Sequence record: MN850621.1
Reading direction: 5' to 3' (one strand)
DNA length: 64,000 nucleotides
Source of the DNA: Escherichia phage dhabil
The notes under the pieces are model-generated. The model saw only the letters and a program-made list of their open reading frames with translations, did not search any database and was not told where the DNA came from. Positions 38,447-50,424 of the stretch are shown here, piece by piece. A program made the position numbers and the translations under genes. Within the stretch, counting starts at the first letter, position 1; each line of letters opens with the position of its first letter.

Positions 38447-40006
38447 ATGAAAAAGAATGCATTAGTACAAAAATGGTCCGCTCTGCTGGAAAACGAAGCT
38501 CTTCCTGAAATCGTTGGTGCTTCTAAACAAGCTATCATCGCTAAAATCTTTGAAAACCAGGAACAAGATATTCTGACCGCTCCTGAATATCGTGACGAAA
38601 AAATCTCCGAAGCATTTGGTTCTTTCCTGACTGAAGCTGAAATCGGTGGTGACCACGGTTATGATGCTACCAATATCGCAGCTGGCCAGACCTCTGGTGC
38701 TGTAACTCAGATTGGGCCGGCAGTAATGGGTATGGTTCGTCGTGCTATTCCTCATCTGATTGCTTTTGATATTTGTGGTGTTCAGCCTCTGAATAACCCT
38801 ACCGGCCAGGTATTTGCACTGCGCGCAGTATACGGTAAAGACCCTATCGCTGCTGGCGCTAAAGAAGCTTTCCACCCGATGTATGCTCCGAATGCTATGT
38901 TCTCTGGTCAGGGTGCTGCTCAGACTTTTGAAGCACTGGCTGCAGGTAAAGTTCTGGAAGTTGGTAAAATTTATTCTCACTTCTTCGAAGCTACCGGTTC
39001 TGCACACTTCCAGGCTGTTGAAGCCGTAACCGTTGATGCTGCTGCTACCGATGCTGCTAAACTGGATGTTGCCGTAACCGCTCTGTTGGAAGCTGGTCAG
39101 CTGGCTGAATTGGCTGAAGGTATGGCTACTTCTATCGCTGAACTTCAGGAAGGCTTTAACGGTTCTCAGGACAACCCGTGGAACGAAATGGGCTTCCGTA
39201 TCGATAAACAAGTTATCGAAGCTAAATCCCGTCAGCTGAAAGCAAGTTACTCCATCGAACTGGCACAGGACCTTCGTGCAGTACACGGTATGGATGCAGA
39301 TGCTGAACTGTCCGGTATCCTTGCTACCGAAATTATGCTCGAAATCAACCGTGAAGTTATTGATTGGATTAACTACTCTGCACAGGTTGGTAAATCTGGT
39401 ATGACCAACACCGTTGGCGCTAAAGCTGGTGTGTTTGACTTCCAGGACCCGATCGATATCCGTGGTGCTCGTTGGGCCGGTGAGAGCTTTAAAGCCCTTC
39501 TGTTCCAGATTGATAAAGAAGCAGCCGAAATCGCTCGTCAGACCGGTCGTGGTGCTGGTAACTTCATCATCGCTTCCCGTAACGTAGTTAACGTACTGGC
39601 TGCAGTTGATACTTCTGTAAGTTATGCAGCTCAAGGTCTGGGTCAAGGTTTCAACGTTGACACCACTAAAGCAGTATTTGCCGGTGTTCTTGGTGGTAAA
39701 TATCGCGTTTACATCGACCAGTATGCCCGTGCTGATTACTTCACCATCGGTTATAAAGGTTCCAACGAAATGGACGCAGGTATCTACTACGCCCCTTACG
39801 TTGCACTGACCCCGCTGCGCGGTTCCGATCCGAAGAACTTCCAGCCGGTAATGGGCTTCAAAACTCGTTACGGTATCGGTATTAACCCGTTCGCTGACCC
39901 AGCTGCTCAGGCACCTACCAAACGTATTCAGAATGGTATGCCGGACATCGTTAACAGCCTCGGTCTGAATGGTTACTTCCGTCGCGTTTATGTTAAAGGT
40001 ATCTAA
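38447..40006 (+). CDS. 23: major capsid protein
   Basis: Long blocks (QAIIAKIFENQE, AFGSFLTEAEIGGDHGY, ATNIAAGQTSGAVTQIGPAVMGMVRRAIP, C-terminal FRRVYVKGI) match recalled T4 gp23. Confidence 0.97.
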   Translation: MKKNALVQKWSALLENEALPEIVGASKQAIIAKIFENQEQDILTAPEYRDEKISEAFGSFLTEAEIGGDHGYDATNIAAGQTSGAVTQIGPAVMGMVRRAIPHLIAFDICGVQPLNNPTGQVFALRAVYGKDPIAAGAKEAFHPMYAPNAMFSGQGAAQTFEALAAGKVLEVGKIYSHFFEATGSAHFQAVEAVTVDAAATDAAKLDVAVTALLEAGQLAELAEGMATSIAELQEGFNGSQDNPWNEMGFRIDKQVIEAKSRQLKASYSIELAQDLRAVHGMDADAELSGILATEIMLEINREVIDWINYSAQVGKSGMTNTVGAKAGVFDFQDPIDIRGARWAGESFKALLFQIDKEAAEIARQTGRGAGNFIIASRNVVNVLAAVDTSVSYAAQGLGQGFNVDTTKAVFAGVLGGKYRVYIDQYARADYFTIGYKGSNEMDAGIYYAPYVALTPLRGSDPKNFQPVMGFKTRYGIGINPFADPAAQAPTKRIQNGMPDIVNSLGLNGYFRRVYVKGI

Positions 40007-40129: not shown

Positions 40130-41413
40130 ATGGCAAAGATTAACGAATTACTGCGCGAGTCAACAACTACTACCAGCAACTCATTGGGTCGCCCTAATCT
40201 TGTTGCTTTGACCCGTGCTACCACTAAACTAATTTATCGCGATATCATCGCTGAACAACGTACAAACCAACCTATCGCTGCGTTGTATGGTGTCAAATAT
40301 CTTACCCCTGATAATGAATTCAGTTTCCAAACCGGTGCAGTTTATGGTGGTGAAGTTGGTTCTAAAGACCGTGAAACTATCCCGGAACTCACAGATAAAG
40401 CCCAGGCGATTGCCAAGGGTGACTACTTTAAGTATCAGAATGTGGTTTATAAGGCTCTTCAAGCAAGCCCACTCGCATCCACTAGCGCTACAGAATTGGC
40501 CGATGCTCTTCAAGAAGGTTTGGTGTCATTAACGTGTCGTTTGGTTCCTGATGCAGCCCATACCACTAAATTTGAAGAGAGTGATGTAGAAATCTCTGAT
40601 GCTGTATTCCAGGTTAATAAATGGAATGCCCCTGTTAAGACCCGTAAATTGAAGACTGCTTTGACCGTAGAATTAGCACAGGATATGGAATCAAATGGCT
40701 TCGACGCCCCTGCATTCTTAGAAGACCTCCTGGCTACAGTAATGGCAGATGAAATTAATAAAGATGTTCTGCAATCCCTAATAACCGTATCCAAACGCTA
40801 TAAAGTTACGGGTGTATCTGATAATGGCATCATCGATTTGACTTATGATAGTGCTCCAGAATCTGCACGTAAACTTTATGAAATTGTTTGTGAGATGAAT
40901 TCTGAAATCCAGAAAACTACTTCTTATTCGGGTACGTTTGTTGTGGCTTCAAGTCGTGTGGCTGCAATGCTTGCAGGTTCTGGCTGGTTAAAACATAGAC
41001 CTGAAGATAATAATTGGCTCCCAGAAACGGCCTATGGTTATTTGTTGAATGGATTACCTCTGTTCTGTGACGTTAACAGCCCATTGGATTATGTTATCGT
41101 AGGTGTTAAAGAGAACTATGGTGGTAATGAAGTTGTCGGTTCTATTTTCTATGCCCCATATACAGAAGGCCTGGATTTAGACGACCAAGAACACGTTGGT
41201 GCTTATAAGGTTATTGTCGACCCGGATTCATTACAGCCTTCTATTTCTCTGATGGTTCGTTATGCACTGTCCGCTAACCCGTACACCGTAGCTAAAGACG
41301 ATAAAGAAGCTCGTGTTATCGATGCAACCAATATGGATTTAATGGCTGGTCAGAGTAATATGTCTTATCTGCTTGGTGTTAAACTTCCAGCAATTATTTA
41401 CGAGGCTGATTAA
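40130..41413 (+). CDS. 24: capsid vertex protein gp24, copy 1
   Basis: 427 aa (T4 gp24 length); gp23-like blocks (FRIDKW..EVK.RKLKT.LTVELAQD, YAPYTEGLD, LSANPYTVAKDDKEARVID). Confidence 0.85.
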   Translation: MAKINELLRESTTTTSNSLGRPNLVALTRATTKLIYRDIIAEQRTNQPIAALYGVKYLTPDNEFSFQTGAVYGGEVGSKDRETIPELTDKAQAIAKGDYFKYQNVVYKALQASPLASTSATELADALQEGLVSLTCRLVPDAAHTTKFEESDVEISDAVFQVNKWNAPVKTRKLKTALTVELAQDMESNGFDAPAFLEDLLATVMADEINKDVLQSLITVSKRYKVTGVSDNGIIDLTYDSAPESARKLYEIVCEMNSEIQKTTSYSGTFVVASSRVAAMLAGSGWLKHRPEDNNWLPETAYGYLLNGLPLFCDVNSPLDYVIVGVKENYGGNEVVGSIFYAPYTEGLDLDDQEHVGAYKVIVDPDSLQPSISLMVRYALSANPYTVAKDDKEARVIDATNMDLMAGQSNMSYLLGVKLPAIIYEAD

Positions 41414-42693
41414 TGTCTAAGATTATAGACCTAATTAAAGAATCCACATTGACGGCTGCCAACTCGGTTGGCCGTCCTGCTCTTCTTTCATACACCCAAG
41501 CAACTAATAAACGAATCTTTAAAGCCCTAGTTGCTGAACAAAAAACAAGCCAACCTGTTGCTGCTCTGTACGGGGTTCGTGTACTTAACCCTGACGACAA
41601 AATGACTTATCTTGGTGGCGCTACATTTGCAGGCCAGATTGGTATGTCGGAACGTGAAAATATTCCTGAATTTACCGATTCGTCTACAGCTTATGCAGCC
41701 GGCGATATGTTCCAGTTTGAAAGTGTAGTGTTTAAAGTTCTAGAAGCATCTCCTTTCGCCGGAACCACGGAAACCGACCTCGGTGAAGTTATTTCTGAAG
41801 CAGTGGCCGCTGGGCATATTCGTATGGTATCAGATGCTGCTATTACTTCTAAATTCGAACAAGGCCATCCTGAAATTGCTGAAGCAGGCTTCCGTATTGA
41901 CAAATGGCAATCTGAAGTTAAATCACGTAAACTGAAAACTTCATTGACAGTCGAATTGGCCCAAGACCTAGAATCAAACGGGTTTAATGCTCCTAATTTC
42001 ATTGAAAATCTGCTAGGCATTCAAATGGCAGAAGAAATTAATAAGGACGTATTACAGTCATTAATTACAGTGAGTTCTCGTTTTAAAGTCCAGGGTGTTT
42101 CTGAAAAGGGCGTATTGGACCTTACTAACCCACGTTATGATAATGCCCAGGACCGTGCTCGTACATTATATTATTACATGTGTGAGATGAACTCTGCCGT
42201 CCAACGTCAAACTTCTTTCGCTGGGACTTATGCCGTAGCTAGTTCTCGTTGTGCTGCTATTCTCGCTGCATCCGGTTGGGTTGAGAAAAAGGAAGACCAA
42301 GATGAATTGGCTTATGGTGTATTAAAGAATGGTCTACCTCTTTATGCCGATATGAATAGTCCATGTGATTATGTTATTGTTGGTGTAAATGCTCAGATGG
42401 GTGAAGGACAGACGGTCGCATCTTTATATTATGCGCCTTATACGGAAGGTTTGGATGTGGTTGATGAAGAAGGTGATACTTCAGTAGGTGAATTTAAGGT
42501 TATTGTTGACCCAGAAAGCTTACAACCTACAGTAGCATTGCTTGCTCGTTATGCATTGACTGCAAACCCTTATACCGTCGCTAAGGACGATAAAGAAGCC
42601 CGCATTATTGATGGTTCTGATATGGACAAAATGGCTAACCAAAGCCAGTTGAGTTCTTATCTCGGTGTTAAACTTCCACCACTAGAAAAATAA
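41413..42693 (+). CDS. 24: capsid vertex protein gp24, copy 2 (tandem paralog)
   Basis: 426 aa, alignable with copy 1 over full length; translationally coupled (TAATG). Confidence 0.85.
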   Translation: MSKIIDLIKESTLTAANSVGRPALLSYTQATNKRIFKALVAEQKTSQPVAALYGVRVLNPDDKMTYLGGATFAGQIGMSERENIPEFTDSSTAYAAGDMFQFESVVFKVLEASPFAGTTETDLGEVISEAVAAGHIRMVSDAAITSKFEQGHPEIAEAGFRIDKWQSEVKSRKLKTSLTVELAQDLESNGFNAPNFIENLLGIQMAEEINKDVLQSLITVSSRFKVQGVSEKGVLDLTNPRYDNAQDRARTLYYYMCEMNSAVQRQTSFAGTYAVASSRCAAILAASGWVEKKEDQDELAYGVLKNGLPLYADMNSPCDYVIVGVNAQMGEGQTVASLYYAPYTEGLDVVDEEGDTSVGEFKVIVDPESLQPTVALLARYALTANPYTVAKDDKEARIIDGSDMDKMANQSQLSSYLGVKLPPLEK

Positions 42694-42718
42694 AAGGGAC
42701 CGTAAGGTCCCTTTATTG
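42693..42718 (+). terminator. intrinsic terminator GGGACC-GTAA-GGTCCC + TTTATTGTTTATT
   Basis: Hairpin plus T-rich tract directly after gp24 copy 2. Confidence 0.6.
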
Positions 42719-42719
42719 T

Positions 42720-43727
42720 TTATTTGGATACTAATTCAATCCATACAGCTCGTAGCGTATCTTTAACGCACTCAATAAGCTGCTTTTTAACTTCAACAGG
42801 GTTTTCTGCATCGGTTAATTCTAATTCTTCGCGGGCTGCCTCTTCCAAAATATCTTGGACCGTCAGTCCCATTACCTTTCCAAAATCTTTAGGTGATACT
42901 TCACCAATCTTACTGATAACGTTGTTAATACGGTTAACAGTCACATAATCTGTGAATTGTTGTAATAAATCTAAATCGTCTTGGGATAATACTACTGCAA
43001 CTTTAATAGGCTTATCAGATTTTTTCTTCTCGCTGAATTTAGAGTTCTTGCATTTAATTGCTACACGATTTCCATTAGGCAGCCAAAGCGGATAACAAGG
43101 TTTTAATACGTACCCTTCAGCGGTAAATACTTCGCCTTTTGCTTCGGCATTCCACACATGAGCATTAGCTTCGGCTAGCCCGACATTATCTACTGTAAAA
43201 TTATAATCAGGAAGGACGGAATCTAAATCATTTGGCAATTTAATAAGGTCTTCAAATTTACCACGACCTAAAAGTGGTGCCATTTTAAATTTGAACGTCT
43301 TACAAAATGATTCCATCATATAATCGTCGACATAAGTCACATCGCCGCTTTCGGTGGTAACAATAATGTCAAATACATAAAAATCTTTATCACCGTAATC
43401 AACGTTCTTCTGAATGCCTGTTCCAGCGAATTCACCGAAAACTTGATAAGATACGGCTGCTGAAGTTTCCATAATATCTTGTATAGATTTAATAGAATCA
43501 GCGTAGTTCTTAAGTACAATTTCATAACCATAGAAATCTTCAGCAGGGAGAATTGGGCCAGTGCGCTTGGCGCATGTGACTGCGTCACGTTCTATGATTA
43601 AACTAAAGTTGGTTCCATGAATCTTCTCACGTGCTACCCATTCACCACCAGTCAAACCATTGGTACGGAGTTTTTCGATAAACTTACTGTTGTAGTGGTT
43701 TTCCAGACTGCTATATTTCTTGAACAT
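42720..43727 (-). CDS. rnlB: RNA ligase 2
   Basis: [20 protein letters not shown]...[10 protein letters not shown] (ligase KxHG lysine motif); 335 aa; position after gene 24 as in T4. Confidence 0.9.
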
Positions 43728-43841
43728 AAATCACCATAATAAATATAATTAAATAGAAGAGCTAGTAATCTTCTGTCACCAAGCCAAATGGTTTAACGGA
43801 AGGACCTAGACCCATTATAACACACCTAAATTTAAAGCATA

Positions 43842-44054
43842 TTACTTTAGACCAAAAACGCGCTTTGCGCTGACCTTTTTGTTGTTTAATCTTTTACGAT
43901 ACACAACTTTCTCTTTTGCTTTAAACTTGGCCTTAGCATTCTCAACTTCGGCCCAGGCTTTAGCCATATCTCTGGCAGTTCCGCCAATCTTTTTAGCAAT
44001 ATCAATAAAATTCATACCCGATTCATGTAAAAAATGTACTTTAATCTTATCCAT
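43842..44054 (-). CDS. small helix-turn-helix-like protein (about 70 aa from MDKIKV)
   Basis: Start at 44052-44054 is downstream of the predicted promoter; GMNFIDIAKKIGGTARDMAKAW resembles an HTH. Confidence 0.45.
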   Translation of the reverse strand: MDKIKVHFLHESGMNFIDIAKKIGGTARDMAKAWAEVENAKAKFKAKEKVVYRKRLNNKKVSAKRVFGLK

Positions 44055-44083
44055 AACAGTTCTCTTGTGATTTGAACTATTCA

Positions 44084-44113
44084 ATAGTAACATGAGAATT
44101 TTAACTTGTAAAC
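44084..44113 (-). promoter_or_regulatory. early promoter (GTTTAC-N18-TACTAT, minus sense)
   Basis: Same architecture as the early promoters at 3748, 5902 and 6253. Confidence 0.45.
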
Positions 44114-44123
44114 AGGAGATTTT

Positions 44124-45629
44124 ATGTCAGACAATCCATTATACGGGCATGATGGTAGAGGCCACTTTAGAGGCGTATCATTAGTAGAAGTTCCACAGAA
44201 CAAATCATTGGAATTTGTGGACATACTCACTAGTGAAAGCACCTTAGACCCTACTATGCTAGATTCTTCTCAAAGCTATGGACTTGAATTTATAAAACAA
44301 GCTTCTAGGGAAGGCGCGTTGGCCCATTTAGGTATAACTAATGAGATGCTAACACCTGGTACTGAAGGTCCACAAGGCCCTAAAGGAGACCCAGGGCCGC
44401 AAGGTATTCAAGGTAACCCCGGTCCTAAAGGAGAAAAGGGCGAACCAGGACCAGTAGGTCCAGAAGGTCCTAAAGGAGACCCGGGTTCACCAGGAAAAGA
44501 AGGCCCTCAGGGTTTACAAGGGGCCCAAGGAGAAGTAGGACCGCAAGGACCACAAGGTCCTATAGGCCCGGCAGGTTTGGTGTGGAAGGGAGCCTGGGAT
44601 GAATCTACCCAATACTCTAAAGACGATGCAGTTGGATACCAGGGAGCTTCTTATTTTTGCATCAGTTCTAATACAGGAACAATACCTCCTAGCGAAGGAG
44701 TTTGGGCACTATTGGCTAATATCGGTGCACCAGGTCCTCAAGGACCAACAGGCCCAACCGGCCCTCAAGGTCCACAAGGCGCGCCAGGCCAAGATGGTAA
44801 TGGGTTTATCTGGGCCGGAAACTGGGCCCTTGGTTCGTCTTATTATATAAACGATTTGGTCCAGTGCGAAGGGTCTTCTTGGATTTGTATCCAGGATAAT
44901 ATAGCAAATAATGATAGTTATCCTGGGAGTGGAGACCTGTGGGCCGATTATTGGAATTTATTTGTAAAAGAAGGGCGTCCAGGAAATCCCGGAGAAGATG
45001 GTGCACCTGGAGAGCAAGGTGCCCAAGGACCGCAAGGCGACCCAGGTCCTAAAGGTGAAAAGGGTGAACCCGGGCCACAAGGTATTCAAGGTCCTATAGG
45101 TCCTGCAGGTGCGCCAGGCAAAGATGCAGTATTTGATGTCGATTCTTTAACCCAGTCTCAATTAAAATCTTTATATGATAAACTTTTCCCATTCTATCCA
45201 CCTAGATATTGGAAAGGCTCTTTAAGATTTGATAAGCCTCTGAACACTTCAGAGTGGAAGGAAATACGTTTGTGGGACCTTAATATGGTTCTTCATGTTC
45301 GCATGTACTCATCTGTAGGCATCCATATAAGGGCTACTAATGCAGGTCTTACTAATAGGCTTGATATTAAAAGATTTACCAACTATGAAAACGGAATAGA
45401 ATGTGCCAACTGGAGTAATGTGTTGTGGTCATCATCTCCTGAATTATTCGACGATTTGGCTTATTCTAGTGCAAGACAATTTAACCGTTACGAAATATTT
45501 GACCGTGATACTAGAAAATACTACACTGTATCTGTGTTTATTGTAGGCGGCCCTCTTAATACGACTACAGATATCCCTGTTGAAGTTTTATTTTCTGTCG
45601 AAGACCATACCAATATGAGCACGTTTTAA
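44124..45629 (+). CDS. collagen-like triple-helix repeat protein with two carbohydrate-binding-like (CBM5/12-type) inserts and a C-terminal globular domain (501 aa)
   Basis: Three Gly-X-Y runs (aa about 81-152, 203-229, 286-336) separated by two W....Y..(D)D.V.Y.G.SY.C...N.G..P....W motifs; RBS AGGAGA. Confidence 0.75.
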
Positions 45630-45638
45630 GGAGGTTAA

Positions 45639-46505
45639 ATGATTGTACTTAAAATAAATGGTCCTAGATATGAATTGGTTGGCAGGACAGTAACCTTTTA
45701 TACCGGGTTTGTATTACCACCCGGTTCTACTCTAGATGACGTAGAAATTAATTGGTATAAAAACGATGTCCATATTCCACAACTTCCTACCGAAGACCCT
45801 TTTGAATTAAATTTATGGGAAGTAGGATTCCCGGCGGCAGGAACATTTTATGCGACCATAACAAATAAGAAAAGTGGTGAAATAACAAAGAGTAACGAAA
45901 TAGAACTTGAAATAGGTACCCTTCCAAGAAGAATAGTCCTAGATATAAACTCTAGGGAATTAATATATGCCAATATAGGAGAAACAGTTTCACTTCGCCC
46001 GTCGTGTAGAGTGGAACCCACTTATGCCGAAAGAATTTGTAGATGGTATAGAGATGGAGTAGAATTATCTAAAGACGAAGATATTGATATATTAATAGAC
46101 GACCCTGATAAATTTGGAGATTATACATTAAAATCTATAGCGACCTGCGAAGGAGCATATATCCCTGCTTCTGAAGAACTTTTAGTTGAAATAAAACCTA
46201 GGGATGATGTATTGCAGTGCCCTTTCATATATGATAACGACCTTAATGCTTATTTACCATATGGCGGTGGAAGAAATGAATCGTATATGTGGATAGGTTG
46301 GTGGGTATGGGACGAAATAAGAGAAGCCGTTAGATTGGGAGAAGATTGGACTTTGGATATAAACAACAGCCCATACAAGTATAAATGTGAGTTACAAAAA
46401 GTAGCCGACCTTTTGTCTAAGTATCCTGAAGTAGAGATACAAGAGTCGAGAAATGGCTACATCTTAGAAAGGAAAGACTTAGTTTACGTCCCTCCTGAAA
46501 AATAA
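45639..46505 (+). CDS. Hoc-like capsid decoration protein paralog (288 aa)
   Basis: C-terminal about 90 aa (YMWIGWWVWDEI...EDW...LQKVADL...YPEVEIQESRNG) parallels the Hoc C-terminus at 46779-47066; RBS AGGAGG. Confidence 0.7.
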   Translation: MIVLKINGPRYELVGRTVTFYTGFVLPPGSTLDDVEINWYKNDVHIPQLPTEDPFELNLWEVGFPAAGTFYATITNKKSGEITKSNEIELEIGTLPRRIVLDINSRELIYANIGETVSLRPSCRVEPTYAERICRWYRDGVELSKDEDIDILIDDPDKFGDYTLKSIATCEGAYIPASEELLVEIKPRDDVLQCPFIYDNDLNAYLPYGGGRNESYMWIGWWVWDEIREAVRLGEDWTLDINNSPYKYKCELQKVADLLSKYPEVEIQESRNGYILERKDLVYVPPEK

Positions 46506-46507
46506 TA

Positions 46508-46529
46508 AAGGGCCTACGGGCCCTTTTTG
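46508..46529 (+). terminator. intrinsic terminator GGGCC-TAC-GGGCCC + T5
   Basis: AAAGGGCCTACGGGCCCTTTTTGG directly after the Hoc-like gene. Confidence 0.6.
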
Positions 46530-46693
46530 GTATGTAAAATTTTATCTATAGTAGCTATTATCCCAAAAAAGGAACTAATGCATGTGAAAAGAGCCAATAT
46601 AGAAGCAAACAACCCACTAGTTAATGAAATTAACGAAAACAAAAACAGCACTATAAAGAAAACCAACAACCCTATATCTTTGTTAAATTTCAT
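46514..46693 (-). CDS. small hydrophobic membrane protein (59 aa)
   Basis: Hand-translated: MKFNKDIGLLVFFIVLFLFSLISLTSGLFASILALFTCISSFFGIIATIDKILHTKKGP; RBS AGGTGG 4 nt before ATG. Confidence 0.4.
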   Translation of the reverse strand: MKFNKDIGLLVFFIVLFLFSLISLTSGLFASILALFTCISSFFGIIATIDKILHTKKGP

Positions 46694-46754
46694 ATATCCA
46701 CCTATTAAAAATTATTCGTCAATAACTTAATCTCCCGAAACATTATCATAAACT

Positions 46755-46780
46755 AAATAAGGGCCTTGCGGCCCTTTATT
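46755..46780 (-). terminator. hairpin GGGCC-TTGC-GGCCC flanked by T-rich tracts (possibly bidirectional)
   Basis: AAATAAGGGCCTTGCGGCCCTTTATT directly 3' of hoc. Confidence 0.45.
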
Positions 46781-48191
46781 AATAAACGTAATCGTAAATA
46801 ATTCCAGCATCCAAAGCGGTTCTGTGAATAATTCTACCATTACGAGATTCCTGTACATCAACCTCAGGATAATCGGCTACCATTTTTTGAAGGGTATAAC
46901 GATGGAGATAATATTCACTATCAGGTTCGTCAGTTTTCCAGTCTTTGCCTTCAAGGGTCATTTTCTGAATTTCGTCCATAACCCACCAACCACACCAAAT
47001 ATAAGCTGAATTACGAACTGGTAGCGGATGAACGTAAGGTAGTTCGCCCTCTGGTTCAGGAGCGACTTTAGCCGTAATTGTTACATTACCGGATTTTGTG
47101 ACGGTCACAGAATTATAGTCGGTAGCCGAAACCACAACAGAAACTTCAATAACCTGTGAACCTTCAGCGCTTGTGTCAATTACTAATGTATCCGTAGCAC
47201 CCACAACAGGTGAACCATCTTTCTTCCAAGAATAAGCAAAAGTAGCACCACTAGGCGCACCGACTACCGTGGCTTTAAAAGAAGCCGGGATTCCTTCAGA
47301 GACAGTAATAGAAGCAGGCGTTAAATTAACAGAAACACCTGCCATAGTCTTTTTAGTAATTGTTACACTTCCTGTTTTGGTAACGGTTAAATCATTATAA
47401 TCCGTACCTTTTAGGAGTACCGAAACTTCAATAGAGTAAGAACCTATTGTAGACGTATCAACAGCAAGAGTATTACTGCTTTCGCCCGGAATAATAGAAC
47501 CGTTTTTCTTCCAAGAATAAGTTGCATTTACGCCGGAAGGAGCGCCGACTACATCCGCTTTAAACTGTGCAGATGAGTCTTTCTCTGTACTAATTGAGGC
47601 CGGTGTTAAAGTAACAGAAACACCTGATATAGTTTTCTTAACAAAAGTTACCGCAGCACCTTTAGTAGCGGTACCCGGGTTATATTCAGGGGCGGTAACA
47701 GTAACTTCACAGTTCAACGTGTAATTTGCTTCCGCGGCTTCGGTTACAGTAATAGTTTTACCAGTTTGGCCAGAGATTACGCTGGTGTTACGTTTCCAAA
47801 CATAAGCAATTGTTGCACCTGCAGGTGCACCCGTCACGTTAGCAGTAACAACTTGAGATTGGCCAACTTCTTTAGAAACAGAAATAGGGTCCAAAGCCAA
47901 AGAAATAGACATGGTCTTATTAGCTACGGTAACTTCAAAAGTATCTTCAGCTACCTCAGGTTCGCCTTCAGCCGGAGTAGAAGTTGCTACTACTTTTAAA
48001 ACTTTCTTACCTACAGGTGCAGCACCTGTATATTTCAAAACATTGGTTGCTTCTGGATTAGAAGCACCATCAATAGACCATACATATGTAATGGTTCCTT
48101 CTACAGCTGCACCTGTTGCGGTAGCAGTGTAGTTAGCACTTTCGCCTATTTTAATAGACGCTGTGCCGGCTATACTTACAGTAAAAGCCAT
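46779..48191 (-). CDS. hoc: Hoc outer capsid protein with four Ig-like repeats plus C-terminal capsid-binding domain (470 aa)
   Basis: Four about 95-aa Ig-like repeats each containing Y-x-W-K/S-x-(D/N)G; position next to inh as in T4. Confidence 0.85.
   Translation of the reverse strand: MAFTVSIAGTASIKIGESANYTATATGAAVEGTITYVWSIDGASNPEATNVLKYTGAAPVGKKVLKVVATSTPAEGEPEVAEDTFEVTVANKTMSISLALDPISVSKEVGQSQVVTANVTGAPAGATIAYVWKRNTSVISGQTGKTITVTEAAEANYTLNCEVTVTAPEYNPGTATKGAAVTFVKKTISGVSVTLTPASISTEKDSSAQFKADVVGAPSGVNATYSWKKNGSIIPGESSNTLAVDTSTIGSYSIEVSVLLKGTDYNDLTVTKTGSVTITKKTMAGVSVNLTPASITVSEGIPASFKATVVGAPSGATFAYSWKKDGSPVVGATDTLVIDTSAEGSQVIEVSVVVSATDYNSVTVTKSGNVTITAKVAPEPEGELPYVHPLPVRNSAYIWCGWWVMDEIQKMTLEGKDWKTDEPDSEYYLHRYTLQKMVADYPEVDVQESRNGRIIHRTALDAGIIYDYVY
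47067..47621 (-). repeat. internal tandem duplication of Ig-like domains 3 and 4 within hoc
   Basis: ATYSWKKNGSIIPGESSNTLAVDTSTIGSYSIEVSV... versus FAYSWKKDGSPVVGATDTLVIDTSAEGSQVIEVSV... are closely similar. Confidence 0.6.
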
Positions 48192-48200
48192 ATTTTACCC

Positions 48201-48872
48201 TTATTTTAAAGTTACGAAAGATGAATTACGCGTTTCACGTACTAATACTGAACCATTACGATTGATGTAATAAATCAGACTGAATAGTGTTTGGTGGGCA
48301 GATGGGTGTTGGAAATCTTTAGGGCGTTCTTTCCAATCAGGGGTTTCGGTAATCCATTGATAAATCCACCAAGGCACAGTACAATACCCTGGGTTTTTAC
48401 CAATGAGTAAAAGATTAGGGCTAAAGTTTTCAGGTAAAGAGAATACAGGTTTTTCAGATTCAATAACCTCGGCCACAGCCTCTTTGAATTTCTCTTCGAC
48501 AAACGGGACGTCTTCTTCAATAATCTCTACCTTAGGAAGTTCGGCTACCTCAATAACTTCAACTACCGCTTCAGGGGCATCAAATAATAGGGTAGCCTCT
48601 TCTTTGGCGGGTTCGGCACCATCAACAAATTCGTTAGCGCCTGTGAGTTCGTCGGCGGCATCAATCAAATCAGAAATAGACAAACCTTCGGTTTCTGGAA
48701 GTGGTTCATCAGCCAGGGCTTTAAGGCCTTCAGAGATATCGATAATCAAATTATCAAACGAACGGGTTTTCTTAAGTTTCAAACCGAATTGTTCGCCGTA
48801 TTCGATTAACTTAGCTTTAGCTTCTTTTTTATCTTCGAGTGCACGAAGCTCTTCAATATATTGAGTATCCAT
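48201..48872 (-). CDS. inh: Inh, inhibitor of prohead protease
   Basis: 223 aa (T4 Inh is similar), acidic N-terminal half; position between hoc and uvsW. Confidence 0.7.
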   Translation of the reverse strand: MDTQYIEELRALEDKKEAKAKLIEYGEQFGLKLKKTRSFDNLIIDISEGLKALADEPLPETEGLSISDLIDAADELTGANEFVDGAEPAKEEATLLFDAPEAVVEVIEVAELPKVEIIEEDVPFVEEKFKEAVAEVIESEKPVFSLPENFSPNLLLIGKNPGYCTVPWWIYQWITETPDWKERPKDFQHPSAHQTLFSLIYYINRNGSVLVRETRNSSFVTLK

Positions 48873-48892: not shown

Positions 48893-48913
48893 ATAAATAT
48901 AATTATATTTATA
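48893..48913. promoter_or_regulatory. divergent pair of late promoters (TATAAATA on plus 48893-48900; TATAAATA on minus 48906-48913)
   Basis: Plus copy 27 nt upstream of uvsW; minus copy upstream of inh and hoc. Confidence 0.55.
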
Positions 48914-48927
48914 ACTGAGAATTAGAC

Positions 48928-50424
48928 ATGCAAATTCAAGTACATTTTGATAATTTTAGTCATGTTCGTGTTGAGTGTGATGAATCCACCTTCTACGAAC
49001 TCAGAGACTATTTCAGCTTTGAAGCTGATGGATATAAATTTAACCCTAAATACCGTTACGGGCAATGGGACGGGAGAATTCGTCTTCTAGATTATAACCG
49101 TAAACTTCCGTATGGTCTAGTCCCACAAATTAAAAAATTCGCTGACCAGTTTGAATACTCTCTTTGGATAGACCCACGTATTCTTGAACAGGAAGATATT
49201 TCTCGCGAAGATTTTGACTCATGGGTGGCTTCACAAGAGATTTATTCAGGTTCTACCAAGATTGAGCCACATTGGTACCAGAATGAAGCCGTATACAACG
49301 GTCTGACAAAACGTCGTGCAATTCTGAATTTACCTACATCCGCAGGTAAATCATTGATTCAGGCGCTCCTGAGTCGATATTACGTTGAGAACTATGAAGG
49401 TAAAATTCTTATCTTAGTTCCTACTACTGCACTTGTCGACCAGATGATTAATGACTTCATCGATTATCGTTTGTTCCCTAAAGCCGCTATGCTTGGTATT
49501 CGTTCAGGTACTGCTCGTGATTCTGATGCAATGATTTATGTTTCAACTTATCAAACGGCTATTAAACAACCTAAAGAATGGTTTGCTCAGTTTGGTATGT
49601 TTATGAATGACGAATGCCATTTGGCAACAGGTAAATCAATTTCTACCATCATCGAAGGCCTTACCAATTGTATGTTTAAATTCGGTTTGTCCGGTTCTTT
49701 AAAAGACGGTAAAGCCAATTTAATGCAATATATGGGTTTGTTTGGTGATGTGTTTAAGCCAGTATCCACTTCACAGTTAATGGAAGAAGGACAGGTAACT
49801 GATTTAAAAATAAACAGTATTTTCCTTCGTTATCCGGATGAATTCACTGTTAAGATGAAAGGTAAAGATTACCAATCAGAAATTAAAGTCATTACTAAGG
49901 CTACTCGTCGTAATAAATGGGTTGCTAATTTAGCTGTTAAACTCGCTAAGAAAGAAGAGAACGTATTCCTGATGTTTAAAAACATCGAGCACGGTAAAAC
50001 TCTTTTTGAAATGGTTAAAGAGCAACATAAAGAAGTTTATTACGTATCAGGTGAAGTTAATACAGAAACTCGTAATGCTCTTAAAGTAATGGCGGAAAAT
50101 GGTAAGGGTATTATTGTTGTGGCAAGTTATGGTGTGTTCTCTACTGGTATTTCCGTTAAGAACCTCCACCATGTAATATTTGCACATCCGGTAAAATCCA
50201 AAATCATTGTACTCCAGACAATAGGTCGTGTGCTCCGTAAACATGCTTCTAAATCAACAGCACAAGTTTGGGACATTATAGACGACATGGGCGTTAAGCC
50301 TAAATCAGCAAATGCTAAAAAGAAATATGTTCATTTGAATTATGCATTAAAACATGCCTTAGAACGTATTCAACGTTATGCTGACGAGAAATTTAATTAC
50401 GTAATGAAACAGGTGGATTTATGA
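48928..50424 (+). CDS. uvsW: UvsW RNA-DNA / DNA helicase
   Basis: HFDNFSHVRVECDESTF.ELRD.FSFEADGY.FNP..RYG.WDGRIRLLDYNR, NLPTSAGKS (Walker A), MNDECH (Walker B) match recalled T4 UvsW. Confidence 0.95.
   Translation: MQIQVHFDNFSHVRVECDESTFYELRDYFSFEADGYKFNPKYRYGQWDGRIRLLDYNRKLPYGLVPQIKKFADQFEYSLWIDPRILEQEDISREDFDSWVASQEIYSGSTKIEPHWYQNEAVYNGLTKRRAILNLPTSAGKSLIQALLSRYYVENYEGKILILVPTTALVDQMINDFIDYRLFPKAAMLGIRSGTARDSDAMIYVSTYQTAIKQPKEWFAQFGMFMNDECHLATGKSISTIIEGLTNCMFKFGLSGSLKDGKANLMQYMGLFGDVFKPVSTSQLMEEGQVTDLKINSIFLRYPDEFTVKMKGKDYQSEIKVITKATRRNKWVANLAVKLAKKEENVFLMFKNIEHGKTLFEMVKEQHKEVYYVSGEVNTETRNALKVMAENGKGIIVVASYGVFSTGISVKNLHHVIFAHPVKSKIIVLQTIGRVLRKHASKSTAQVWDIIDDMGVKPKSANAKKKYVHLNYALKHALERIQRYADEKFNYVMKQVDL

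Follow-up and report, generated by a model that had tools for sequence, protein, structure and literature searches.

A second, short Hoc of Escherichia phage dhabil, encoded next to a collagen-like fibre, and its possible role as a capsid anchor

Introduction

Hoc is the standard model of phage mucus adherence and the main scaffold for display on the T4 capsid. T4 heads carry one Hoc per hexamer (PMC10385173), and Fokine et al. (PMC10385173) have listed which residues of T4 Hoc touch gp23* or keep the binding loop in place, with a Glu-Ser-Arg-Asn-Gly loop between beta-strands 3 and 4 and an Arg357-Asp313 pair as features of the family. The same study (Fokine et al. 2023, PMC10385173) describes a short second Hoc of 314 aa with two Ig domains and a C-domain in Serratia phage Muldoon and two Hoc-like proteins in Enterobacter phage PG7, and contains the idea that the Hoc capsid-binding domain can display other ligands on the head. 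A collagen-like head protein is found in SPP1: in the account given in PMC7602432, which refers to Zairi et al. 2014, gp12 is a trimer at the quasi-six-fold centres of the capsid hexamers and is thought to be adhesive. The gp8.5 protein of phi29 forms a beta-tulip trimer at the quasi-three-folds.

Here we analyse a window of 64,000 nucleotides from Escherichia phage dhabil (MN850621.1) which contains, besides a canonical hoc gene (hoc1), a second and shorter one (hoc2) directly behind a gene for a collagen-like fibre.

Results

Gene order of the locus

The window comprises the gp23-gp24-rnlB-hoc-inh-uvsW block of a T4-like phage. A megablast search with positions 43700-46800 matched Escherichia phage dhaeg over the full length with 99.9% identity and the phages CLB_P2 and Ec2-ASingh with about 98% identity, all of them members of the genus Dhakavirus (Straboviridae). 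The plus-strand genes gp23 (38447-40006), gp24a (40130-41413) and gp24b (41413-42693) are followed on the minus strand by rnlB (42720-43727) and a gp24.3-like DUF2774 gene (43842-44093). The collagen-like fibre gene (44124-45629, 501 aa) and hoc2 (45639-46505) are located on the plus strand again. The reading frame of hoc2 starts with ATG, encodes 288 aa and agrees exactly with the original prediction, including the peptides quoted there. An AT-rich spacer of 273 bp (46506-46778) separates hoc2 from the convergent hoc1 gene on the minus strand (46779-48191), which encodes a canonical Hoc of 470 aa (PHROG 1149, E 2e-123; Pfam I-set above the cut-off). Inh (48201-48872) is encoded on the minus strand as well, followed by uvsW (48928-50424) on the plus strand. 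The fibre gene and hoc2 are oriented opposite to hoc1 and inh, as had been claimed, and the view of the pair as a two-gene insertion also holds: it is an accessory pair that is missing in the congeneric phages JS98 and IME341.

Some further features of the locus were recorded. The tandem gp24 paralogues (40130-42693) code for vertex proteins with 56% mutual identity and are present as 24a and 24b in existing Dhakavirus records. RnlB is only about 82-83% identical to the versions of CLB_P2, JS10, IME08 and JS98, unlike the flanking gp24b, which is 99-100% identical to CLB_P2 and JS10; this divergence beside a near-identical gene points to a second mosaic boundary adjoining the fibre/hoc2 pair. 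The 273-bp spacer holds a hydrophobic ORF of 59 aa with a pI of 9.5 (46514-46693, minus strand); near-identical GC hairpins lie on either side of it (46507-46526 and 46759-46776). This spacer was seen only in dhaeg, CLB_P2, Ec2-ASingh and IME341 and is missing in JS10 and IME08.

Domain structure of Hoc2

Hoc2 was characterized by its reading frame, by homology and by an AlphaFold2 model. The similarity of its C-terminus to Hoc, a central point of the original prediction, is far beyond chance: residues 212-281 of Hoc2 align with residues 393-460 of the 470-aa Hoc with 46% identity (E 8e-18), and homology to residues 281-376 of T4 Hoc is also present. Hoc2 matches PHROG 1149 (Hoc-like head decoration) with an E value of 6e-43 and the T4 Hoc chain of PDB 5vf3_Z with 1.6e-14. 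AlphaFold2 modelling with an alignment of 13 sequences resulted in a pLDDT of 86, compared with a poor single-sequence model (pLDDT 41). The model consists of two beta-sandwiches (residues ~1-93 and 97-187) and an alpha/beta C-domain (~195-288) with beta-alpha-alpha-beta-beta topology, whose fold matches the capsid-bound domain of T4 Hoc in a structure comparison. Sequence, profile and structure comparisons therefore agree in placing the C-terminal part within the Hoc capsid-binding family.

On the plus strand the domains correspond to positions 45639-45920 for the Ig-like domain D1 (aa 1-94), which is distal from the capsid, 45927-46202 for the Ig-like domain D2 (aa 97-188) and 46218-46502 for the capsid-binding domain (aa 194-288). 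Hoc2 thus has Ig-like domains N-terminal to the capsid-binding domain, as usual in the Hoc family. The Ig-like nature of the N-terminus, which had been read from a signature in the sequence, stands by the structure model but not by sequence, where the Pfam Ig_2 match reaches 17 bits with a cut-off of 27. The N-terminal domains are unrelated in sequence to those of Hoc1. Concerning Ig-like motifs, a preprint about gut phage-bacteria coexistence (bioRxiv 10.1101/810705) reports them as missing in three of four phages, CLB_P2 included. The Hoc1 studied here scores above the Pfam I-set cut-off and is 96.6% identical to Hoc1 of CLB_P2; for Hoc2 the structure model shows Ig-like domains.

Conservation of the predicted capsid contacts

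Equivalent residues of Hoc2 and T4 Hoc were assigned from HMMER and MAFFT alignments. The T4 residues Y293, R300, Y304, W306, W309/W310 and D313 are identical in Hoc2 (Y198, R212, Y216, W218, W221/W222 and D225), and so is the complete stretch Q354-E-S-R-N-G-Y360, which corresponds to Q268-Y274. The Hoc2 alignment shows no variation at E269, S270, R271, G273 and D225 and hardly any at N272. Four of the five highly conserved contact residues of T4 Hoc (Tyr293, His295, Arg300, Trp309 and Trp310) are identical; the fifth, His295, is exchanged for Asn200 in the subgroup to which this Hoc2 belongs and is a histidine in most other Hoc2 members. H299 is replaced by G211 and is also missing in Hoc1 of this phage. 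In addition, the subgroup contains an insertion of seven residues, modelled with low confidence, in the beta1-beta2 loop just before Arg212. The exchange of His295 for Asn together with the insertion beside Arg212 could change the affinity. Hoc2 is, His295 aside, a Hoc-family protein by sequence and fold.

The counterpart on the capsid is conserved as well. Residues 324-342 of gp23 (39416-39472, plus strand) correspond to the Hoc docking loop Gly326-Arg344 of T4 gp23 with 18 of 19 residues identical, and both D336 and R344 (T4 numbering) are kept. Since the contact residues and the docking loop are conserved, Hoc1 and Hoc2 would address the same capsid site and compete for it. Judged from these residues, Hoc2 very likely binds the capsid.

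The collagen-like fibre

The upstream neighbour had been described as collagen-like and predicted to bind glycans, and Pfam supports both points with a Collagen match (E 9e-24) and two CBM_5_12 modules (E 2e-9). The N-terminal domain (aa 1-78; 44124-44357, plus strand) carries the motif GHDGRGxFxG...LGIT. It is followed by a collagen part (44358-45125, plus strand) with three Gly-X-Y runs (aa 79-153, 201-227 and 284-334), between which the two CBM5/12-like modules are located (aa ~154-200 and ~228-283), and by a C-terminal globular domain (aa 335-501; 45126-45626, plus strand). Searched alone, neither the N- nor the C-domain matched a Pfam or a PHROG family, and the fibre matched nothing in the PDB sequences besides collagen. 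Among Pfam, PHROG and the PDB sequences, no known tail-fibre or baseplate-attachment domain and no recognisable capsid-binding domain was found in the fibre. Its annotation in relatives is "hypothetical", "tail fiber-like" or "tail fiber", and the match to PHROG 5073, labelled tail fiber, is likewise an annotation only.

The N-domain of about 75 aa, a candidate attachment domain to the virion or to Hoc2, is kept in all fibre/hoc2 pairs. A tblastn search with it found 25 phage records, all from Straboviridae. With the N-domain of the window as the only query, a search of 1.84 billion representative proteins yielded no more than 21 matches. About 16 of them look genuine and have the domain at their extreme N-terminus; matches to long repeat proteins (ankyrin, FG-GAP-like, junk repeat) look spurious and were discarded. 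A scan of IMG/VR with an N-domain profile recovered CGG4-1 only. The motif GHDGRGxFxG (44124-44200) resembles the FG-GAP/VCBS motif NDGxGxFxD, with a weak match to a repeat protein (P0032), which is probably coincidental. The C-domain, presumed to be the distal ligand-binding tip, was found by tblastn in 17 records and has a mean pairwise identity of about 0.25 between alleles; in JS10 it is replaced by an unrelated domain.

Junction, distribution and diversity of the cassette

The stop codon TAA of the fibre gene (45627-45629) is followed by GGAGG (45630-45634) and the ATG of hoc2 at 45639, and the ribosome-binding site AAGGAGG (45628-45634, plus strand) overlaps the fibre stop codon. The claimed coupling of both genes is real, with a common strand and a ribosome-binding site, but the spacer measures 9 nt instead of 10. 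The two genes are probably translationally coupled.

By our definition of the cassette, a fibre gene with the GHDGRGxFxG...LGIT motif directly precedes a short Hoc gene in the same orientation, and the two overlap or are separated by no more than 11 nt. This arrangement was found here and in at least 14 other cassettes, in which the genes lie up to 11 nt apart or overlap by up to 11 nt. The carriers in the genus Dhakavirus are, besides this phage, JS10, ABTNLsp5 and VR5, the last with a very divergent allele; the others are TH15 (Gaprivervirus), CGG4-1 (Gelderlandvirus), phage 65 (Ishigurovirus), AhFM11 (Biquartavirus), Aeromonas phage AS4, FBB1 and Cronus (Roskildevirus), Pantoea phage Phynn and three metagenome contigs. 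The short-Hoc lineage is located almost always directly behind the collagen-like fibre gene, in about eight genera and with highly diverged alleles. In all cases examined the upstream fibres have the N-domain in common, followed by collagen repeats, often with CBM5/12-like modules, and a C-terminal globular domain. One metagenomic T4-like contig (SRR10097265; L017 892-8695) contains two tandem pairs of fibre and short Hoc in addition to a canonical Hoc of 932 aa. In VR5 (L026 4801-6930) a collagen/CBM fibre of 433 aa with a shortened N-domain and a Hoc-like protein of 272 aa, both annotated as hypothetical, occupy the same position in the same orientation, which indicates that the cassette is more widespread than the tblastn lists show.

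Degenerate forms were also detected. Directly upstream of an intact hoc2 with 88% identity, IME08 has an in-frame fibre relic of 24 codons that ends in STF* (L003 3359-3504). After gp24b it carries another collagen-like fibre gene of this family (L003 595-1991), with the N-domain in a different frame, which could be due to a frameshift or a sequencing error. In Pseudomonas phage PspYZU05 (L013 4989-5653) an interrupted fibre N-domain runs into a truncated Hoc of 132 aa, and Aeromonas phage AP1 (L014 4995-5231) contains a lone ORF of 78 aa for a fibre N-domain; both are decayed remnants. A comparison of the window with JS10 revealed 99% identity for gp24b and Inh and 90% for Hoc1, but only 50% for Hoc2 and 28-44% for the fibre. 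Judged by these identities, the cassette locus is a hot spot of diversity.

Expression signals

The pair had been described as bracketed by terminators. A palindromic GC hairpin, AAAGGGCC-TACG-GGCCCTTT, is present directly after hoc2 (46507-46526), whereas none exists directly upstream, where the nearest hairpin follows gp24b at about 42695-42716. In a terminator scan the downstream hairpin was terminator-like on the minus strand, and a T run follows on the plus strand too. The late promoter of inh and hoc1, TATAAATA, is located upstream of inh on the minus strand (48906-48913). The 130 nt in front of the fibre gene contain no canonical T4 late promoter TATAAATA; the region from gp24b to the fibre start offers nothing closer than one-mismatch sites at 43738, 43744 and 44000. 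In the Roskildeviruses the cassette follows directly after gp24 with a hairpin in between, so that read-through from the late capsid operon is possible.

Relationship of Hoc2 to other Hoc proteins

The product of hoc2 is already annotated in related phages. The identical protein of dhaeg (dhaeg_80) is called head outer capsid protein, and the protein of CLB_P2, with an intact ORF and 100% identity, head decoration protein. IME08 and JS10 each have two CDS named hoc, Salmonella phage CGG4-1 has "Hoc I" and "Hoc II", and the homologue in Aeromonas phage 65 is labelled "hoc-2, second copy of the hoc gene". The second Hocs recorded in phage 65, CGG4-1, JS10, IME08 and dhaeg belong to the same lineage, with 37-100% identity in the N-terminal part and the same cassette; for these we found annotations only and no functional or structural study. 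CGG4-1 also encodes a "hypothetical protein" of 944 aa (L008 5886-8720) which ends in a Hoc C-domain and brings this phage to three Hoc-family genes.

A tblastn search with the Hoc C-domain detected 1590 places in 1387 phage records, so that several Hoc-family genes in one genome are nothing unusual. A second Hoc gene as such is therefore not new. The N-terminal 204 residues of Hoc2, used as query, matched only 23 phage records. Muldoon and PG7 are missing from the tblastn matches to the Hoc2 N-terminal part and to the fibre N-domain; judged by this comparison, their second Hocs seem to form other lineages that lack the fibre partner. A word-indexed protein search with the C-domain alone gave no match, and a profile search contributed only two further sequences.

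In a neighbour-joining tree of C-domains the coliphage Hoc2 groups with Hoc2 of Aeromonas, Erwinia and Pantoea phages. The T4-type Hoc1 clade, including Hoc1 of this phage, is set apart with 99% bootstrap support, and a single Hoc2 clade receives less than 50%. According to this tree hoc2 is an old separate lineage and no recent copy of hoc1. The canonical position of T4 hoc, directly downstream of inh on the same strand and behind the late promoter, is held by hoc1; with hoc2 on the plus strand behind the fibre gene, hoc2 is a paralogue and not the orthologue of T4 hoc.

Co-variation of Hoc2 and the fibre

Pairwise identities were compared over 14 cassettes, which are related sequences and hence not independent of each other. 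The identities of the fibre N-domain correlate with those of Hoc2 D1 (r 0.82, Spearman 0.69; r 0.90 with 10 cassettes), compared with 0.54 for the C-domain of the same fibre and 0.55 for the Hoc2 C-domain. With the Hoc2 C-domain controlled for, D1 and the fibre N-domain show a partial correlation of 0.73; with D1 controlled for, that between the Hoc2 C-domain and the fibre N-domain is about zero. On the DNA, D1 and the fibre N-domain are separated by the variable fibre tip. Cronus, whose Hoc2 has only one Ig domain, keeps D1. The co-variation and the retained D1 fit, short of proof, an arrangement with the proximal fibre end on D1, Hoc2 as anchor and an exchangeable tip. The conserved residues of D1 are largely Ig-core positions, and conservation of D1 alone was for this reason rejected as proof of a protein partner.

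Discussion

The best overall explanation of the locus is a capsid-bound short Hoc within an old fibre cassette, which works together with the fibre and may anchor it; taken as a whole, we give this reading an even chance. In such a scheme Hoc2 would dock as a monomer at the centres of gp23* hexamers after head expansion and share these sites with the longer Hoc1. The heads would carry a mixture of long and short Hoc with a ratio set by expression and affinity. Hoc2 would serve as the capsid anchor whose distal Ig domain D1 holds the N-terminal domain of the fibre. The result would be a head that presents a glycan-binding collagen fibre, with which the phage could adhere to mucus, cell surfaces or other polysaccharide. 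The parts of this scheme differ in strength. Gene linkage and co-variation argue that Hoc2 and the fibre are quite likely functional partners; a physical anchoring of the fibre by Hoc2 is a more tentative proposal, to which we give slightly less than an even chance. Extending it to short-Hoc adaptors with exchangeable two-component collagen head fibres in phages of Escherichia, Salmonella, Aeromonas, Erwinia and Pantoea is plausible but somewhat more speculative still. If Hoc2 is such an adaptor, the contig with two tandem pairs would encode two orthogonal sets of anchor and fibre. The pairing of both genes in a cassette and the anchor hypothesis appear to be undescribed: no study of the cassette was found in the literature searched, nor any virion proteomics, microscopy or genetics for a cassette member.

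Hoc2 might instead be capsid-bound but an independent second short Hoc with a ligand of its own. The fibre would then be attached elsewhere, at the neck, the baseplate or directly at the capsid, or would not be part of the virion, and the linkage would reflect only the co-expression of accessory adhesins from one variable locus. We regard this as a serious possibility, although a rather doubtful one. The intact hoc2 of IME08 beside a deleted fibre gene suggests that Hoc2 may function alone, but IME08 still possesses another fibre gene of the family. The published second Hocs of Muldoon and PG7 were described without partner fibres (PMC10385173), and the fibre is labelled as tail fiber or tail fiber-like protein in relatives and in PHROG 5073. 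Swapping of fibre tips by recombination can also produce the co-variation of D1 and the N-domain, and a monomeric Hoc that holds a trimeric collagen poses a stoichiometry problem for an anchor. Against an independent Hoc2, the genes have stayed adjacent and tightly coupled in about eight genera, even where protein identity has fallen to about 25-35%. They are also duplicated as pairs, and in PspYZU05 and AP1 they have decayed together. Moreover, the fibre N-domain is confined to such genomes; a domain for docking on a core tail or neck protein, which all T4-like phages possess, would not be expected to have so narrow a distribution.

Chaperone genes follow many phage tail-fibre genes, and hoc2 occupies just this place directly downstream of a fibre gene, behind a region that lacks a canonical late promoter. 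Hoc2 could accordingly be a non-structural protein with a co-opted Hoc-like domain, either an assembly chaperone or adaptor of the fibre or a decoy. We consider this improbable, because the ESRNG loop, R300 and the WW pair, all gp23 contacts in T4, are kept across the whole Hoc2 lineage, a pattern that would hardly be expected in the absence of selection for capsid binding, and because the fold matches the capsid-bound T4 domain. A recent origin of hoc2 by tandem duplication of hoc1 is hardly credible, as is the view of it as a decaying gene without a function of its own, in spite of its position next to hoc1 and the common C-domain: the C-domain tree, with Hoc2 of coli-, Aeromonas, Erwinia and Pantoea phages outside the Hoc1 clade (99% bootstrap), speaks against a recent duplication, the N-terminal domains are unrelated in sequence to Hoc1, the intact ORF is 100% identical in CLB_P2 beside an rnlB of only 83%, and purifying selection on the family is evident in many genera.

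The capsid surface of this phage had been expected to be unusual. With respect to the second Hoc this was overstated: by itself it adds little, as hoc2 is already annotated as hoc, Muldoon and PG7 provide a precedent and multi-Hoc genomes are common. The significance would come from the partnership of a capsid-bound Hoc2 with the fibre. If it is true, heads of T4-like phages can bear two-component modular adhesins with a swappable collagen/CBM fibre, and Hoc2 would be a natural orthogonal anchor for T4-type capsid display, since the gp23 docking loop is so nearly identical to that of T4. Such a partnership would also be relevant to how therapeutic Dhakaviruses such as CLB_P2 persist in the gut.

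Compared with known systems, Hoc2 resembles T4 Hoc (PDB 8t1x and 5vf3; RB49 Hoc 3shs) in the C-terminal capsid-binding fold and its contact residues, in the order of Ig-like domains and C-domain, in its acidic character and in the conserved docking loop of gp23. It has two Ig-like domains where T4 Hoc has three, and Hoc1 of this phage is longer still with its 470 aa. Unlike T4 Hoc, it has the exchange H295 to N, a longer beta1-beta2 loop and no C-terminal GIIYxY tail, and unlike T4 hoc, its gene is located away from inh on the opposite strand and is almost always paired with a fibre gene. Muldoon and PG7 set the precedent for more than one protein with a Hoc capsid-binding domain in a T4-like phage (PMC10385173). 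SPP1 gp12, as described in PMC7602432, attaches to the capsid on its own, as do the phi29 head fibres; in the proposed pair this role would fall to a separate Hoc paralogue. Between gp12 and the fibre there is no sequence relationship beyond the Gly-X-Y repeats. The proteins phi29 gp8.5 and T5 pb10 are comparable as non-essential fibres or Ig-like adhesins displayed on the capsid without stabilizing the head, but they differ from the proposed pair in folds, symmetry sites and anchoring, and each is a single polypeptide. The closest functional analogies of the proposed pair would be SPP1 gp12 and the head fibres of phi29.
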